Part shown: one piece after another, positions 2,291-39,485 of the stretch | Numbering within the stretch: position 1 is the stretch's first letter | Layout: every line of letters begins with the position of its first letter | IMG/VR virus record: IMGVR_UViG_2534682294_000013 | Reading direction: 5' to 3' (one strand) | DNA: 39,485 nt | DNA from: a virus | Taxonomy: Duplodnaviria > Heunggongvirae > Uroviricota > Caudoviricetes | Made by a program: the position numbers and the translations under genes | The notes under the pieces: generated by a model | Seen by the model: the letters and a program-made list of their open reading frames with translations, nothing else | Databases searched by the model: none | Told to the model about the DNA's origin: nothing

Positions 2291-3298
2291 TTAGAAGCAT
2301 TTTTCTTTATAATACTTTAAATAATTAAAAATGCCTGCCATATAATGCTTTTGTTTAAATTTATGTTTTGCACAATACCGATACTGATTGCTATTTACAG
2401 GTTTAAGTAAATCTTCTTTACTCCACGGAGAAGCTGCTTTGGCGATCAAAAAACTACGTGACACCGGATAGTCAGCCCACTCATGCCAAGGTTTTGTAGG
2501 TCCCACATAGTGTATAAACACGGTGTCATCATTGACTGGATTATCAACTTTGTCTTTTAATTCATAGTTAATACTATATCGGGTATTATATTTCTCCGAA
2601 ATAAACTTCACTTTACCATTCAATAATACATTCAGTACATCTTGATCAAGGTGGGTGATTTTACTTACCCAATCTGGGTCACGCAACATTTCAATAGCTT
2701 TTGACGAAATGTTATTTAGATTCCACTCATCAATATTTATCAGTAAAAAACCAGCATTGAAATATCCAGAAGCTAACTGTGGTGTAGTTAATACCGAGGC
2801 TCGATTTTGCCACCATTCAACATCTCTTTCAGCTACAACTGCGGCAATTTCATTAGTAGAAAATTGATAATCTAAGAGTTCTTTAATACTACCCTTGCAA
2901 GCAATATCTGCATCAAGATATAGTATTTTTTCATGTTTATGATAGAAATAATCTGCAATTATAAATCGAAAATATGTTGCGTAAGTCCAGTTTTTCGTGC
3001 TTGGTAATGACTTCAGCTTATCACAATTGATAACATAAATATTAATTCTTGAATTATATTGTTTTGCTAAATCAGAAAAATATAATTTGTCTTTATCACT
3101 GATATAATCTGTGAAAACATGAAATTCACAAGAGATTTCTCTATTGTTTAATAGAATAGATGCGATGGCTACACCACATCCAAAAAGAAAATTTCTGTCA
3201 ATACCAAATGCTATATCAAGAGTATTTTTAGATCTTATATTTTGATAATGAAAATTATACTCAAAAAGGATGATGTCACTATCATTGAGTTGAGACAT
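2291..3298 (-). CDS. waaI: LPS outer-core glycosyltransferase, GT8 family (first GT8, directly after waaP)
   Basis: 335-aa ORF, paralogous to the 520-1533 product (YLDADIACKG DxD motif). The single GT8 between waaP and waaY fits R3-type waaI rather than the K-12 waaS-waaB-waaO arrangement. Symbol by synteny. Confidence 0.5.
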   Translation of the reverse strand: MSQLNDSDIILFEYNFHYQNIRSKNTLDIAFGIDRNFLFGCGVAIASILLNNREISCEFHVFTDYISDKDKLYFSDLAKQYNSRINIYVINCDKLKSLPSTKNWTYATYFRFIIADYFYHKHEKILYLDADIACKGSIKELLDYQFSTNEIAAVVAERDVEWWQNRASVLTTPQLASGYFNAGFLLINIDEWNLNNISSKAIEMLRDPDWVSKITHLDQDVLNVLLNGKVKFISEKYNTRYSINYELKDKVDNPVNDDTVFIHYVGPTKPWHEWADYPVSRSFLIAKAASPWSKEDLLKPVNSNQYRYCAKHKFKQKHYMAGIFNYLKYYKEKCF

Positions 3299-3340
3299 AT
3301 TTATTCTGTATCCAAAATTTTGGCAAAAATAAGTTACGGG

Positions 3341-4138
3341 TTACAACGATTTTCGAATCGTTCTTTCCCTGATTTTTGTGGCTTTTGCTTCTGCTTGCGA
3401 CAGCAGTCCTTGTTCCTGCTTGAGAATGTCTTTAAGCGGGGCGGCAAAATACACTTTCATAAACCGCCAGATATCCCGCTGAGTCAGGCCGATATTCATC
3501 GAAGAAAAATAAAGCCCAATAAGATCTTTATCCCGCCAACGACGTGGAACGCGCGTGCGAAGCTGCGCCCGGTGCAGGTCAATTACCGAAATTTTTAACT
3601 CCTCTTCCTTACCGGAAAAAGGCAAGTGCAGCAGGAAATGACAGATATAACAGTCACGGTGGTTAATGCCCGCAGCATGCATATCGTGCACCATCGTCGC
3701 GACACGCTTAATAAGCATACGCTTTACGCGAACATCTGGAGGGTTAGTCGCCCAGTCAGCACAGTAATCTTCAAGACTTATGGTTGGTGTCAGATCTTCG
3801 GTAATAATAAATGAAGTTCTGGTCAGCGGATTCATGCCTTTTTCGCCAAATGCCACCCCATACATAGTATCAACGCCGACATCCCGCAGTCGATGAATCG
3901 CATTCCATTCGCGGTCTGCGCCTAATACTGGCATCCGCAATGAGAGTAAATTTTTGATTATCTCTTTCAGGGTCGTGCCGCGATGCCATTTGAGAAAATA
4001 GCTTTTGCCCGCCATTTCAAATCGCAGAGTGCGGCGAGTTTCCAGTTCACGAAAAACCTCACCCTGCAAGGTTTTAACTTCCTCAAAAGGATCTTTACCG
4101 CGCCATAACGTGGCAAACGGCTCTTTAAGTTCAACCAT
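3341..4138 (-). CDS. waaP: LPS core heptose(I) kinase WaaP
   Basis: ORF track 3341-4147; start trimmed to the Met giving [14 protein letters not shown]... (265 aa), which matches WaaP as I remember it. Start at 4147 is also possible. Confidence 0.85.
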
Positions 4139-35092: not shown

Positions 35093-35187
35093 GGAAGATC
35101 GTCGTCTCCGGTGAGGCGGCTGGACTTCAAATCCAGTTGGGGCCGCCAGCGGTCCCGGGCAGGTTCGACTCCTGTGATCTTCCGCCA
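35093..35187 (+). tRNA. selC: tRNA-Sec (selenocysteine, UCA anticodon)
   Basis: GGAAGATCGTCGTCTCCGGTGAGGCGGCTGGACTTCAAATCCAGTTGGGGCCGCCAGCGGTCCCGGGCAGGTTCGACTCCTGTGATCTTCCGCCA: 95 nt with long variable arm, ACTTCAAAT anticodon loop and encoded CCA; matches E. coli selC as remembered. Confidence 0.95.
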
Positions 35188-35349: not shown

Positions 35350-36537
35350 ATGGCTCTAACCGATATACAGATCAAACGTGCAAAACCACAAGACAAACCA
35401 TACACATTGAACGATGGACAAGGTCTGTCATTGCTTATCAATCCCGATGGCTCGAAAGGCTGGCGTTTCCGTTTCCGGTTTGCAGGGAAAGCGCGGTTAA
35501 TGTCATTTGGCAGCTACGATTTAGTAAGCCTCGCAGAAGCACGTGAGAAGCGTGATATCGCCCGTAAGCAGGTTGCTAATGGCATTGACCCGGTAGAGGA
35601 ACGCAAAGCTTTAAGACTCGCTCAAAAGCTATCAACAGAAAATTCTTTCGAAGCAATATGTCGAGAATGGTATACCAACAAAGCTGATCGCTGGACTGTA
35701 GCCTATCGAGAAGAAATCATTAGGACATTCGAGCAGGATGTCTTCCCGTTCATTGGTAAACGTCCTATCAGTGAAATCAAACCATTAGAACTGCTTGAAG
35801 TATTGCGACGAATAGAGAAACGAGGAGCACTAGAGAAGACCAGAAAAGTGCGCCAAAGATGCGGTGAGGTCTTTCGTTATGCAATCATAACTGGCCGAGC
35901 TGAATACAACCCAGCACCTGATTTAGCTATCGCTCTGGCCGTTCCTAAGCCAAAACACCACCCATTTTTATCTGTCGAAGAGTTGCCTTATTTTATTCGG
36001 GATTTGGAGGCATACTCCGGCAGCATAATCACCAAAAATGCAACTAAGATAGTTATGCTTACTGGTGTAAGAACGCAGGAGATGCGCTTTGCTACGTGGG
36101 AAGAGGTTGATTTGGATAAGGAGGTTTGGGAGATACCAGCGGAACGTATGAAAATGCGTAGGCCTCACATTGTTCCTTTATCTACTCAGGTAGTTGACCT
36201 TTTTAAACAGCTCAAACCAATTACCGGTCATTACCCTTACATCTTTATTGGCAGGAACAACCGTAGCAAACCGATCTCGAAAGAAAGTGTTTCACAAGTG
36301 ATTGAGTTACTTGGTTACAAAGGCCGTGCTACAGGTCATGGATTTAGACATACAATGTCAACAATATTACATGAACAAGGGTTTGACAGTGCCTGGATTG
36401 AGATGCAATTAGCACATGTTGATAAAAATTCTATTCGTGGAACATACAATCACGCACAATATTTAGAAAATAGACGCGCAATGCTTCAGTGGTATAGTAA
36501 CTTCATATTTAATAAAATTAGTGAAGACACACTTTGA
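35350..36537 (+). CDS. int: P4-family tyrosine integrase
   Basis: 395-aa ORF MALTDIQIKRAKPQDKPYTLNDGQGLSLLINPDGSKGWRFRFRFAGK... (typical P4-integrase N-terminus) with a C-terminal catalytic region (HGFRHT ... Y); 162 nt 3' of selC. Confidence 0.85.
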   Translation: MALTDIQIKRAKPQDKPYTLNDGQGLSLLINPDGSKGWRFRFRFAGKARLMSFGSYDLVSLAEAREKRDIARKQVANGIDPVEERKALRLAQKLSTENSFEAICREWYTNKADRWTVAYREEIIRTFEQDVFPFIGKRPISEIKPLELLEVLRRIEKRGALEKTRKVRQRCGEVFRYAIITGRAEYNPAPDLAIALAVPKPKHHPFLSVEELPYFIRDLEAYSGSIITKNATKIVMLTGVRTQEMRFATWEEVDLDKEVWEIPAERMKMRRPHIVPLSTQVVDLFKQLKPITGHYPYIFIGRNNRSKPISKESVSQVIELLGYKGRATGHGFRHTMSTILHEQGFDSAWIEMQLAHVDKNSIRGTYNHAQYLENRRAMLQWYSNFIFNKISEDTL

Positions 36538-36547
36538 TTTATAAATA

Positions 36548-36575
36548 AAAAGAGCCTCTTCCGAAGCTCTTTTTT
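36548..36575. terminator. bidirectional intrinsic terminator between convergent int and the cargo operon
   Basis: aaaagagc-ctcttccgaa-gctctttt: 8-bp stem flanked by an A-run 5' and a T-run 3', so it reads as hairpin plus U-run on both strands; 10 nt after the int stop and 7 nt after the small-ORF stop. Confidence 0.45.
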
Positions 36576-36581
36576 AATTGT

Positions 36582-36755
36582 TTATTTATTGTTCTTCAAT
36601 CTTTTATCTTCTTGTAAAACAAGATTATTTAACACTTTAATTGACTTGGAGGATAAATCATCTCCTCCTAACATATTTTTTTTCCATTCCGGCCATTCAT
36701 TAATTATTTTTTTAGTTGCAACCACATGTTTAATAAAACCATTTTCGATAGACAT
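36582..36755 (-). CDS. small basic protein, 57 aa, translationally coupled to the upstream deaminase-fusion gene
   Basis: Own translation, not in the ORF track: MSIENGFIKHVVATKKIINEWPEWKKNMLGGDDLSSKSIKVLNNLVLQEDKRLKNNK. ATG at 36753-36755 is 1 nt after the upstream stop; AGGAG (plus strand ctcct, 36762-36766) sits 6 nt upstream of the ATG. 57 stop-free codons in ~30% GC DNA. Confidence 0.5.
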   Translation of the reverse strand: MSIENGFIKHVVATKKIINEWPEWKKNMLGGDDLSSKSIKVLNNLVLQEDKRLKNNK

Positions 36756-36756
36756 G

Positions 36757-38277
36757 TTAAACTCCTATGATCTTTGCGAATAAGTTAACAGAAATCTGCT
36801 CTCTTTCCAAGTAAGAAATAGGCAACAGTGATATTCTTAATGACGAATTAGACTCAGTCCATTTAACAACATTTCCCGACTTATCTTTTCTCTTAATTTT
36901 ATTACCACTTCCATTAACAATGGAAAATAGATTAAAATAGACTCGTGGACCTATTCCAATAAAAGGTTCGAAAAGCACCTTTCCTTGGTTTTTTTCATCA
37001 TTAGTTATTGATTCTGAATGAAATTCATAAGCCTTACTTTTTGGATATGGCTCTATGTAAACCACCCTCTTTATTCCCGAAGCTATAATATGCTTAGCGC
37101 AGTTGTGGCATGGGAAAGTAGTGCAATATATATAAGCATCTTGAGTACTAATATTTGTTCTAGCGCATGCTAAAATAGCTTCCATTTCAGCATGCACCAC
37201 ACGACCATATTCCGTAATATCTTGAATCAGGCTGTTATTGAGGATTCTCTCAAAATTATCACGAGATTTTCTAGGTATTTGATTGAGAATATCATGTATA
37301 ATTTCTCTTTTTTGTTTAGCATTCGAATCAAAACCTCTTACATAGTCCCTTCCTTCCGGATAGTCTTCATAAATTTCGTTCTCTGCATTAAAATATGGCC
37401 AGTATAAACCACCACCAGACTTAGGAACATCATTAGCACCAGTTGACATAATAGCGTAATTTTTTGCTAATACAGCTCCAACTTGTCTTGATAAATCAGC
37501 AGATCTCAAAGCTGAAGAAAAGGCCATATACATTGCATATTCATCAAATGTTGGCGTAATAAAAGGATTACCGAATAGCAAATCAAAAACTCTTTTTATA
37601 TCATTATTAAGTTTATCATCTCGGCCATCTTGGTTTAAAAAGAAATCAGCCAAATGAAATGTATCTCTGGTATGCTGCCCATGCCCAGACTCTTCATCTT
37701 CATCTCTAGCAATCAATAACGCTGCTTTATCTTCTGGAATTCCTTTATTACGAATTAAATTATCTAACCTGCGACTCTCATCAGAAAAAATACCAAACAA
37801 TAAAAATCCCGAGCCATATACTTCTCTTAATTTATACACCTCTTCTGGATGCTTTATTGAATTTATAACATATGCAATTCCTTTTTTATTTATTTGTAAA
37901 CGTGCATGCTTTGCCCTAATCTCATTAATTTTAGCTATTGCTCCAAGAGCCAATATATAATTACATTCACTATCCTCCCTCAGTTTATTTCCCTTAGTCA
38001 TTAAGCCATCAATTCTTTGGTAATTATCTGTATAATCTCCATTACCTAAGAGCTCAGCTATCACATCAGATGAAATCCGAACTTCAGAACATTCAAATTT
38101 ATATAAGGATAATCTATCTCTTATTTTTTTTGTAATTGCTTCTAGGTCTGTGCCAACGGAAGAAACTAACCCTATTACCATTTCTGCTAAAGGTCCTGTG
38201 GATTGCTTATCCTCCCCTGAGTTTTTTAAAAGCTGAGGTGCTTCTTTATTCAATTCTGTTATCTTTGTAATTTTCAT
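36757..38277 (-). CDS. two-domain protein: unassigned N-terminal domain fused to a cytidine/dCMP-deaminase-like zinc-binding domain; candidate anti-phage deaminase
   Basis: 506-aa ORF. C-terminal half has the CDA-fold signature: FDEYAMYMAFSSALRSADLSRQVGAVLAKNYAIMSTGAND (aa 244-283), HAEMEAI (H362, E364) and PCHNC (C390, C393). N-terminal ~230 aa has a Gly-rich segment GLVSSVGTD but no canonical Walker A. AT-rich; lies between int and cos/psu. Confidence 0.85.
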   Translation of the reverse strand: MKITKITELNKEAPQLLKNSGEDKQSTGPLAEMVIGLVSSVGTDLEAITKKIRDRLSLYKFECSEVRISSDVIAELLGNGDYTDNYQRIDGLMTKGNKLREDSECNYILALGAIAKINEIRAKHARLQINKKGIAYVINSIKHPEEVYKLREVYGSGFLLFGIFSDESRRLDNLIRNKGIPEDKAALLIARDEDEESGHGQHTRDTFHLADFFLNQDGRDDKLNNDIKRVFDLLFGNPFITPTFDEYAMYMAFSSALRSADLSRQVGAVLAKNYAIMSTGANDVPKSGGGLYWPYFNAENEIYEDYPEGRDYVRGFDSNAKQKREIIHDILNQIPRKSRDNFERILNNSLIQDITEYGRVVHAEMEAILACARTNISTQDAYIYCTTFPCHNCAKHIIASGIKRVVYIEPYPKSKAYEFHSESITNDEKNQGKVLFEPFIGIGPRVYFNLFSIVNGSGNKIKRKDKSGNVVKWTESNSSLRISLLPISYLEREQISVNLFAKIIGV

Positions 38278-38475
38278 ATGAAGTCATTCATCCAGTGAAG
38301 ATACAAAACATTTTTATAAATAATTCTTAGCATGTTTTCTATGTTTTCATTAAATTTTTTGAATTACCTCATGTTTTACATTTAAGCAACACAAGGTAAA
38401 CAACTGTTATATAAGAAAATTGAAAGCATAATGAATGATGTAGTTGGCTGTCACGTCTTCCCACTTCGTAGGGCG

Positions 38476-38734: not shown

Positions 38735-38753
38735 GTGCTTTCCCCGCCTCGCC
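38735..38753. other. P2/P4-type cos site (19-nt cohesive-end sequence)
   Basis: gtgctttccccgcctcgcc is the exact reverse complement of GGCGAGGCGGGGAAAGCAC, the P2/P4 cohesive end as I remember it; located just 3' of psu as in P4. Confidence 0.7.
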
Positions 38754-38917: not shown

Positions 38918-39485
38918 TTACACAGACTGATGTGATGCCAGTTGCGCACTTTTACGCGAAAAAATCATGTTCTGCGCAGGGGTGAATTTTTCACGGCTGT
39001 CATCCACCGAAGCCGCGTCAGGCCTGAATCCGATGGTCGTTAAAATGTCGCTATCCTGTGCGGAATAATTAATTTTTTCCCCCTTCGCAAGCCAGGACAG
39101 GAGGGCTTCACGCAGGGCATCTGTGGCACGCTGTATGGCACAGTTTCGGGCAATGGCCGTCAGCTCACTGTAACCCATCAGCTCCGGTGCCAGTGCGGCC
39201 GCCAGTACTGTGCCGTGCTGCTGCATAAAATCATTCAGCCGGTCGCGGATGCTGATGTGCTGAACGGCTTCATGCGAACGAATATAACGACCGGCGGCCT
39301 GATTCACCTGCCATTTTCTGACTTCGATAATATTGCGTAATTCGTCCAGGCGGCTGACGTTTCTGCCTTCTCCTGACAGAAGCCGCAGATATTCCTGTTC
39401 GGCCGCTGCCAGCTCATTTTTGCGTTGCAGCCATGCTGCTTTGTTATTCTGACAGGTGTCAAAGGCCTGCTGTAAGGCTGTGCTT
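38918..39485 (-). CDS. psu: P4 Psu-like polarity-suppression / capsid decoration protein (5' end ~5 nt beyond window)
   Basis: The frame of track ORF 38918-39307 stays open to the window edge. Own translation from the edge: STALQQAFDTCQNNKAAWLQRKNELAAAEQEYLRLLSGEGRNVSRLDELRNIIEVRKWQVNQAAGRYIRSHEAV...; resembles the P4 Psu N-terminus as remembered, and the implied length (~190 aa) fits. Confidence 0.65.
   Translation of the reverse strand, partial: STALQQAFDTCQNNKAAWLQRKNELAAAEQEYLRLLSGEGRNVSRLDELRNIIEVRKWQVNQAAGRYIRSHEAVQHISIRDRLNDFMQQHGTVLAAALAPELMGYSELTAIARNCAIQRATDALREALLSWLAKGEKINYSAQDSDILTTIGFRPDAASVDDSREKFTPAQNMIFSRKSAQLASHQSV

Follow-up and report, generated by a model that had tools for sequence, protein, structure and literature searches.

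Organization of the deaminase cassette

The IMG/VR virus record IMGVR_UViG_2534682294_000013, a stretch of 39,485 nucleotides that was analysed as a whole and is called the window in the following, carries on its minus strand a gene for an AvcD-like anti-phage dCTP deaminase and, directly behind it, a small gene of 57 codons (Table 1). This small gene and the relation of its product to the deaminase are the subject of the present work. The ATG of the small gene (36753-36755) is separated from the TAA of the deaminase gene (36757-36759) by a single base (C, 36756). An earlier note on this DNA, made from the sequence alone, had described the open reading frame (ORF) with its coordinates and peptide, the AGGAG six nucleotides ahead of its start codon and the one-nucleotide gap to the upstream TAA, and all of this was found again on re-reading the sequence. 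It had also called the ORF unlisted. That is correct for the ORF track available to its author but not for RefSeq/PGAP, where the gene is already annotated (WP_000021256.1), namely in 12 complete Escherichia coli genomes, seven of which belong to serotype O157:H7.

The large gene bears the RefSeq product name 'anti-phage dCTP deaminase' and matches the PADLOC dCTPase profile (model PDLC02373) with E = 1.2e-168. This match extends over residues 31-501, and Pfam recognizes dCMP_cyt_deam_1 at residues 244-408 (E = 5.6e-20), in keeping with a two-domain enzyme of the AvcD type, in which a P-loop kinase-like region at the N-terminus precedes the dCMP deaminase domain. The N-terminal half is covered by the PADLOC profile only, and Pfam detected no kinase domain in it. 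An intrinsic terminator with a predicted folding energy of -15.9 kcal/mol (z = -6.7) is located directly behind the small gene. Three diverged homologous cassettes retain the hairpin, with stems that differ in sequence. As it is placed after the small gene and not after the deaminase gene, the two genes share one terminator. The hairpin lies between the stop codon of the small gene (36582-36584) and the end of the convergent integrase gene (36537) and, because A- and U-runs flank it on both sides, it may terminate transcription in both directions. Upstream of the deaminase gene, an AT-rich block of about 110 nucleotides is kept in four of five related cassettes aligned with the window; it is partial in L012 and absent in L013. 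No consensus promoter was called inside this block.

Along the chromosome, psu is followed by the cos core, the two-gene cassette, the convergent integrase gene, the gene for tRNA-Sec, yicJ and yicI. RefSeq annotates psu at the identical locus, and the 19-mer listed as cos core is presumably the P2/P4 cohesive end. The GC content of the cassette amounts to 33%, compared with 49% for the window. The interval between psu and int of P4-like satellites has been described as a hotspot for defence genes (Rousset et al., PMC9122126). By its position between psu and int and next to cos, the two-gene operon is classified here as defence cargo in this hotspot of a P4-like satellite integrated at selC.

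Table 1 Features of the deaminase cassette and its surroundings (positions in the window).
Feature	Position	Strand	Remarks
Small gene	36582..36755	-	57 codons and TAA; product MSIENGFIKHVVATKKIINEWPEWKKNMLGGDDLSSKSIKVLNNLVLQEDKRLKNNK; RefSeq WP_000021256.1, 'hypothetical protein'
Conserved module, residues F7-G31	36663..36737	-	FIKHVVATKKIINEWPEWKKNMLGG; from alignment A1 of 39 family members
Shine-Dalgarno sequence AGGAG	36762..36766	-	6 nt before the ATG of the small gene, within the last deaminase codons
Intrinsic terminator	36541..36574	-	GC-rich hairpin and U-tract directly 3' of the small gene, facing the convergent integrase gene
AvcD-like anti-phage dCTP deaminase, 506 aa	36757..38277	-	RefSeq WP_000704989.1
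AT-rich block, about 110 nt, putative promoter and 5' untranslated region	38278..38390 (approximate)	-	From alignment of upstream regions
P2/P4-type cos core	38735..38753	-	GGCGAGGCGGGGAAAGCAC; boundary, on the side of psu, of the variable cargo region in the satellite
psu (polarity suppression protein), P4-like satellite	38918..39485	-	Pfam Psu, E = 4.5e-63; cut by the window end
P4-type tyrosine integrase	35350..36537	+	Pfam Arm-DNA-bind_3, Phage_int_M, Phage_integrase; convergent with the deaminase operon
tRNA-Sec (selC)	35093..35187	+	Integration site of the satellite

The small open reading frame encodes a protein

The earlier note took the stop-free run as an argument for translation, and a calculation with the ORF's own composition (26% GC, stop codon probability 0.10) bears this out, as 56 further open codons would occur by chance with p ~0.002. 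A word-indexed search of 5.8 billion proteins returned few close relatives of the small protein. Four diverged full-length forms were recovered, i.e., the E. coli type, one from Klebsiella grimontii, one from Scandinavium and one from an unassigned read assembly. Wherever the context of close homologues is available, the small ORF always starts one nucleotide after a 506-residue deaminase, and in K. grimontii the cassette also resides between psu and int in the same layout as in the window. Across the four diverged cassettes, nucleotide identity of the small ORF is 73-84% and the changes are mostly found at third codon positions. The ratio of non-synonymous to synonymous substitution rates (dN/dS) is 0.11-0.20 for the small ORF versus 0.04-0.09 for the deaminase gene, with similar synonymous rates for both genes. 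The frame is open in the diverged homologues and only the final seven or so codons are unstable, owing to a one-nucleotide indel in an A-rich run. The ORF had been proposed to be a real gene, with Ka/Ks and conservation as the measures by which it should be judged and a disrupted frame beneath conserved nucleotides as the observation that would speak against it. On these measures, purifying selection acts at the protein level and the comparison shows the 57-codon ORF to be a genuine protein-coding gene.

A homopolymer of eight A residues (36676-36683, minus strand) is present inside the small gene, at codons W24-K25-K26-N27. The few truncated or frameshifted variants in the databases (P0005, P0007-P0009), all from short assemblies, map to this run. 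P0007, P0008 and P0009 look like +1 or -1 frameshifts at the homopolymer, and these could be either sequencing errors or real slippage that turns the partner off.

Two other readings were considered, namely that the frame is open by chance and that the region functions as RNA, e.g., as an antitoxin like AvcI or a 3' untranslated region. The DNA is AT-rich, frameshifted variants exist, the known regulator of AvcD is an RNA, and a second ORF of 64 codons (36589-36783, plus strand) is open antisense to the small gene. This antisense ORF shares the wobble positions of the small gene, so that codon-position statistics alone cannot identify the coding strand. However, the antisense frames of 63 family members are interrupted by a mean of about two stops, and no more than six to nine loci have them open, which marks the antisense ORF as a typical shadow ORF that is not conserved in homologues. 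The amino acid motif described below is conserved even where nucleotide identity has fallen to background, and a search of Rfam returned no relevant match. Together with the low probability of the open frame and the dN/dS values, this practically excludes a chance ORF or an RNA element.

The small gene is an operon partner of AvcD-like deaminases

Eighty loci encoding relatives of the deaminase (46-90% identity to the enzyme of the window) were fetched. They stem from Enterobacterales, Pseudomonas, Vibrio, Acinetobacter, Burkholderiales, Desulfobacterota, Myxococcota, Planctomycetota, Firmicutes and Acidobacteriota. The motif W[PS]xW[KR] is encoded on the same strand between -30 and +300 nucleotides of the deaminase stop codon in 62 of the 80 loci, compared with 0.33 loci expected by chance as derived from the remainder of the same sequences. 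Inclusion of one QPEWKK variant raises the number of loci with a separate partner ORF to 63, and a further locus contains an in-frame fusion. The 63 partner ORFs encode proteins of 41-76 residues (median 59), start with ATG in 59 cases and are preceded by a Shine-Dalgarno-like sequence in 53. Their start codons lie between -26 and +17 nucleotides from the deaminase stop codon in all but two cases (61/63), and 15 of these junctions are ATGA overlaps. The small gene had been suggested earlier to be coupled to the deaminase gene and to encode a protein partner; the first suggestion agrees with a stop/start junction that 61 of the 63 homologous operons have kept, the second with the conservation of a peptide motif in different phyla. 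On this comparative basis, the small gene is shown to be a conserved operon partner of the AvcD-like deaminase.

Some of the loci show signs of decay or rearrangement. In Scandinavium (L006 2242-3407, L007 1-124), the neighbouring integrase gene has fallen apart into four pieces, and the remains of a transposase gene (rve_3) are found upstream. The deaminase gene and the small ORF are intact beside the broken integrase gene, which indicates that the cassette is retained while the satellite decays. In two metagenome contigs (L189, L190; WNGA01015225.1, WNFV01018806.1), an insertion of about 1.8 kb splits the deaminase gene, such that query residues 8-424 are encoded at 159-1424 and residues 420-500 at 3200-3427. 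The downstream small partner ORF is intact.

Sixteen of the 80 deaminase relatives lack the partner. An N-terminal extension of about 110 residues is present in 12 of these 16 enzymes versus 15 of the other 64, with start sites that were called crudely. The E. coli CV839-06-type enzyme (L090, 589 residues) is an example of a deaminase with the extension and without the partner. The extension may be an alternative, built-in regulator, although the pattern is only suggestive. In three partner-less loci (L077, L079, L080), the deaminase stop codon overlaps (-1 or -4) the start of an ORF of more than 300 codons. Judged from the N-terminal sequence, the long ORF in L079 and L080 looks like a type I restriction R subunit, and at such loci the deaminase gene may form part of a restriction-modification operon.

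The extension could also substitute for a partner with a structural role, i.e., for a subunit that this deaminase subfamily needs for folding, oligomerization or stability and that has no switch function. Tight translational coupling suggests a fixed stoichiometry, and natural fusions of partner and deaminase domains exist (L066 and P0164, see below). We nevertheless consider a purely structural subunit unlikely. It would leave unexplained why phages without an AvcD-like deaminase nearby carry the core of the partner and why this core was recently exchanged between a phage and a defence operon, and the variable, low-complexity tail would be unusual for such a role.

A short conserved module forms the core of the partner proteins

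Alignment A1 revealed a core of about 25 residues that follows the pattern F-x2-[HY]-[LI]-x2-[AS]-x3-[VI]-x2-W-P-x-W-K-[KQR]-x2-[LG]. W21 and W24 are invariant, and 90% or more of the 39 sequences share P22 and K25. The parts N- and C-terminal of the core are variable and of low complexity. One member (P0025, 99 residues) contains two tandem copies of the module, with FWDYVSAASKRVEAWPSWKRATFSP occurring twice, and in another (P0037) the module is joined to a C-terminal region of about 140 residues.

Neither Pfam nor NCBIfam nor PADLOC holds a model that covers the small protein or its module, and no known DNA-binding domain was found in the protein with Pfam or NCBIfam. A profile search of 1.84 billion representative proteins yielded 707 clusters at E <= 0.001, most of them with proteins of 40-75 residues. 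For the module, AlphaFold2 predicts a helix at residues 3-19, a turn at W-P and a helix at residues 23-28, with predicted local distance difference test (pLDDT) values of 71-77. A third helix is predicted at residues 36-55, and the mean pLDDT of the model is 71. A Foldseek search with this model retrieved no similar solved structure, and the PDB contains neither a chain with the module nor a full-length AvcD-like structure. The pattern [LW]-P-x-W-K-Q bears what we take to be a resemblance to the villin headpiece. This assignment (PF02209) was not accepted, as only one of seven members was matched, at 17 bits against a gathering cut-off of 27.

In the PHROG database, all ten module proteins tested matched phrog_38465 at the same profile positions (about 5-41), with E values from 4e-13 to 0.029. 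The best value was obtained for a Pseudomonas partner (E = 4e-13), and the match of the window protein is weak (E = 0.0027, residues 6-29). Neither phrog_38465 nor a second family, phrog_29728, carries a functional annotation.

Fusions of the module with deaminase domains

In Methylocucumis oryzae (L066), a deaminase of 527 residues that is otherwise normal and intact carries the module as an in-frame extension of its C-terminus. A second fusion protein, P0164 (L117 771-1451, 226 residues), begins with the module and continues with a phage-type dCMP deaminase domain. Its gene resides between genes for a dUTPase and an N6/N4 methyltransferase on a contig of 2.2 kb, which looks like a phage nucleotide-metabolism cluster. 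Little weight was given to another C-terminal fusion of deaminase and module (P0192) because the deaminase at that locus appears to be broken. The fusions in L066 and P0164 support a direct association of the module with deaminases.

They also bear on the notion that the small gene is an independent passenger, which merely shares the operon and has a function of its own, be it as a transcriptional regulator of the operon or as an anti-phage or anti-helper factor. The module does occur without a deaminase nearby, and its interaction with the deaminase is a proposed one. Still, such a passenger is quite improbable: loci from different phyla, with genomic surroundings that are not related to each other, have the two genes adjacent with overlapping stop and start codons, the module has been joined to deaminase domains independently in two cases, and searches of Pfam and NCBIfam detected no known DNA-binding domain.

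Phages carry the module without the deaminase

Viral and metagenomic sequences were scanned with sub-alignment A2, which covers the WPxWKQxxL sub-type only. Twenty-two loci in IMG/VR contain the full module, and an AvcD-like deaminase is encoded nearby in only one of them. In the other 21, the module is found within unrelated proteins of 45-322 residues. Of the metagenomic loci, 42 have an upstream flank of 1.5 kb or more, and a deaminase gene is positioned directly upstream in 18 of these and not in 24. In the latter group the ORFs that contain the module are longer (median 143 codons from stop to stop). At loci without the deaminase, neighbouring genes encode phage helicases, clamp loaders, processivity factors, polymerase subunits, HNH endonucleases and a portal protein.

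Cultured phages with the module include Pectobacterium phage Peat1 (AKN21161.1, an early-region protein of 108 residues), phage phiTE (phiTE_068) and Pseudomonas phage D3 (orf44). In the cultured Xanthomonas jumbo phage XbC2, XbC2_73 (L201 2495-2608) is a protein of 37 residues that consists of the module only. Its gene lies about 500 nucleotides downstream of a gene for a polynucleotide kinase/phosphatase and about 2 kb from an RNA ligase gene. Genes of these two kinds are often tied to the repair of RNA damage inflicted by defence systems. Among the IMG/VR proteins without an AvcD-like deaminase nearby, one phage protein (L096 658-1626, identical in L147) combines an rIIB-like domain (phrog_609, E = 1.5e-51) with a W-P-x-W-K module near its C-terminus; rIIB has been associated with phage resistance to abortive infection. 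A search of cultured phages and plasmids found no close homologue of the small protein from E. coli.

GenBank entry MT838710.1 (L200, 'UNVERIFIED Bacteriophage sp.', 4954 nucleotides) was initially regarded as a phage mimic and then dropped, since the record carries a complete cassette of deaminase gene (53% identity to the deaminase of the window) and small ORF. It probably stems from a bacterium or a satellite and not from a phage. The family phrog_38465 might draw on deaminase cassettes deposited as phage, of which this entry is an example.

The module of one phage protein (L097), whose gene is flanked by those for a DnaB-like helicase and a processivity factor, is 95% identical at the nucleotide level over 85 nucleotides to that of a Myxococcales partner gene (L048, also present in L168). 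The sequences flanking this segment are unrelated. A second phage copy (L154) exhibits 85% nucleotide identity, and the background median for modules in phage context versus those in defence context is 52%. Such high identity between unrelated flanks shows, as far as sequence comparison can, that a phage gene and a defence operon have recently exchanged a segment of the size of the module.

The attachment of the phage module to many unrelated domains, among genes for helicases, clamp loaders, processivity factors and polymerases, would also fit a sensor or adaptor. In this case the module would dock onto a phage or host hub, e.g., a complex for replication or nucleotide synthesis, which many phage proteins would likewise reach by means of the module. 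The bacterial small protein would thereby sense infection, upon which it would either activate the deaminase or be titrated off. The fusion to a phage-type dCMP deaminase beside a dUTPase gene and the cis fusion in L066, which suits a sensor domain, point in the same direction. This is the main rival to an inhibitory partner, ahead of a structural subunit or a passenger gene, and we hold it to be conceivable though doubtful. The analysis yielded no candidate for such a hub, capture of a cognate inhibitor is the simpler explanation for a phage copy with 95% nucleotide identity to a defence partner, and module-only phage proteins of 37-48 residues (XbC2_73, L100/L101) carry no cargo that could be delivered to a hub.

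Comparison with known systems

The closest counterpart is AvcID (DcdV-DifV) on VSP-1 of Vibrio cholerae, which combines the deaminase AvcD with the small RNA AvcI (Hsueh et al.; bioRxiv 10.1101/2021.03.31.437871; PMC10511110). AvcI is an untranslated RNA that is encoded directly ahead of avcD on the same strand and whose sequence shows no conservation from one species to the next, and related AvcD enzymes are toxic alone and restrained by an adjacent co-transcribed element (PMC10511110). The cassette of the window resembles AvcID in that its deaminase matches the profile of the class, in the small adjacent co-transcribed partner, in a defence by nucleotide depletion and in the proposed logic, according to which the partner restrains a toxic enzyme until infection. 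It differs in that the partner is encoded 3' of the deaminase gene and evolves as a protein with a peptide module conserved across phyla. The element is therefore not AvcI, and the earlier note was right to set a protein partner apart from the RNA inhibitor of the known deaminase toxin-antitoxin system. An AvcI-like RNA at the 5' side was also looked for. When the upstream regions of six related cassettes were aligned, only the block of about 110 nucleotides and the P4 cos region proved conserved; a conserved element of the size of AvcI was not evident, nor did Rfam return anything relevant. Upstream gaps were also compared between partner-bearing and partner-less loci, which gave no usable signal. 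An RNA regulator in addition to the protein is conceivable.

The anti-phage dCTP deaminase (Tal et al.; bioRxiv 10.1101/2021.04.26.441389) is catalogued as a single-gene system. The large gene of the window matches the PADLOC dCTPase model and has the same RefSeq name but forms part of a two-gene operon. The enzymes tested by Tal et al., those of E. coli AW1.7 (576 residues) and of a U09-like locus (577 residues), are only 25-27% identical to the deaminase of the window over the deaminase domain. Full-text searches of the literature, incomplete in coverage, turned up no publication on a small protein that accompanies these deaminases.

The operon further resembles type II toxin-antitoxin systems, in that a gene for a toxic enzyme is followed in a bicistronic operon by a gene for a small, translationally coupled protein with a disordered tail. 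The one-nucleotide gap, the Shine-Dalgarno sequence and the shared terminator fit this type, as does the junction kept in nearly all homologous operons. Type II operons in which the toxin gene comes first are known, e.g., higBA and mqsRA. In contrast to them, no DNA-binding domain was recognized in the small protein with Pfam or NCBIfam, and the toxin would be a nucleotide deaminase. Phage-borne antitoxin mimics likewise have precedents in pseudo-ToxI of Pectobacterium phage phiTE and Dmd of T4. The phage module proteins are similar to these mimics, as phages carry the core of the partner without an AvcD-like deaminase nearby and one recent module-sized capture is apparent. phiTE, the source of pseudo-ToxI, itself encodes a module protein, namely phiTE_068. 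A difference is that many phage copies of the module are fused to other domains.

A working model for the small protein

In the model that we favour, the operon is composed of a promoter, the gene for the AvcD-like dCTP deaminase, the small gene and the terminator. The small protein is probably made alongside the enzyme by coupled translation, since its start codon abuts the deaminase stop codon and has a Shine-Dalgarno sequence of its own. It has a module of about 25 residues, predicted to form a helix, a W-P-x-W-K turn and a second helix, and behind it a variable low-complexity tail. The module would bind the deaminase directly and keep it inactive in uninfected cells, as a protein counterpart of the AvcI RNA. 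Upon infection the enzyme would be released, either because the partner is lost after shut-off of host gene expression or because it is displaced, and the freed deaminase would deplete dCTP/dCMP. Phage module proteins would then be captured copies that keep the enzyme switched off.

We infer from several observations that the small protein binds the deaminase, that its effect is inhibitory and that the phage copies serve in counter-defence. Inhibition is suggested because related AvcD enzymes are toxic on their own, because no alternative inhibitor is apparent in the cassette of the window and because an inhibitor would benefit a phage that carries it, which an activator would not. The small protein is thus probably a regulator of the immune enzyme, and among the roles considered earlier (inhibitor, regulator, sensor) the data favour the inhibitor without settling the matter. 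To the complete reading, i.e., a regulatory subunit that binds the deaminase, acts as an antitoxin-like inhibitor and has been captured by phages, we assign a probability of about 0.5.

Several points weigh against it. The enzyme family can apparently work without the partner, as indicated by its absence from 16 of the 80 relatives. No module ORF occurs downstream of the deaminase genes in the genomes of E. coli AW1.7 and the U09-like strain, nor is there one downstream of the gene for the CV839-06-type enzyme, which is 48% identical to that of the window. The cis fusion in L066 is unlike what would be expected of a labile, titratable antitoxin. In phages the module is found in fusion proteins of great diversity (45-410 residues), often encoded among replication genes, and the module could thus dock onto another common target instead of the deaminase. 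Confidence in the AlphaFold2 model is only moderate (pLDDT 71), and both binding and inhibition are deduced from sequence comparison.

A more general version of the model can be put forward tentatively. The W-P-x-W-K module may be a mobile protein 'key' for nucleotide-depleting deaminases, which would serve bacteria, in place of the AvcI RNA, as a built-in inhibitor or sensor of AvcD-like enzymes and would have been captured repeatedly by phages, either alone or grafted onto other proteins, as a means of keeping the enzyme inactive.

Implications for dCTP-deaminase immunity

The analysis leads further than the earlier note, in that the small gene is identified, on comparative grounds, as a member of a widespread and uncurated family of small proteins that partner AvcD-like deaminases and share their core with phages. 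dCTP deaminases have been catalogued as single-gene systems or as pairs of deaminase and RNA antitoxin, and their silencing and activation are only partly understood. A protein partner in about 80% of the closer relatives of the enzyme offers a concrete handle on this question, and its motif is short enough to be mutated residue by residue. As PADLOC has no model for the partner and NCBIfam no name, half of the operon escapes at least these two annotation resources. A direct trace of the arms race, at the level of a 25-residue module, is seen in the segments of a phage gene and a defence gene that share 95% nucleotide identity. Should the phage copies be inhibitors, they would constitute a new anti-defence family in the cultured phages Peat1, phiTE, D3 and XbC2 and at the same time ready-made tools for switching the enzyme off. 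To our knowledge, neither a protein regulator nor a phage-encoded family of inhibitors has previously been described for dCTP-deaminase immunity. If the module indeed acts as a mobile key, it would represent, within the literature searched, the first of both.

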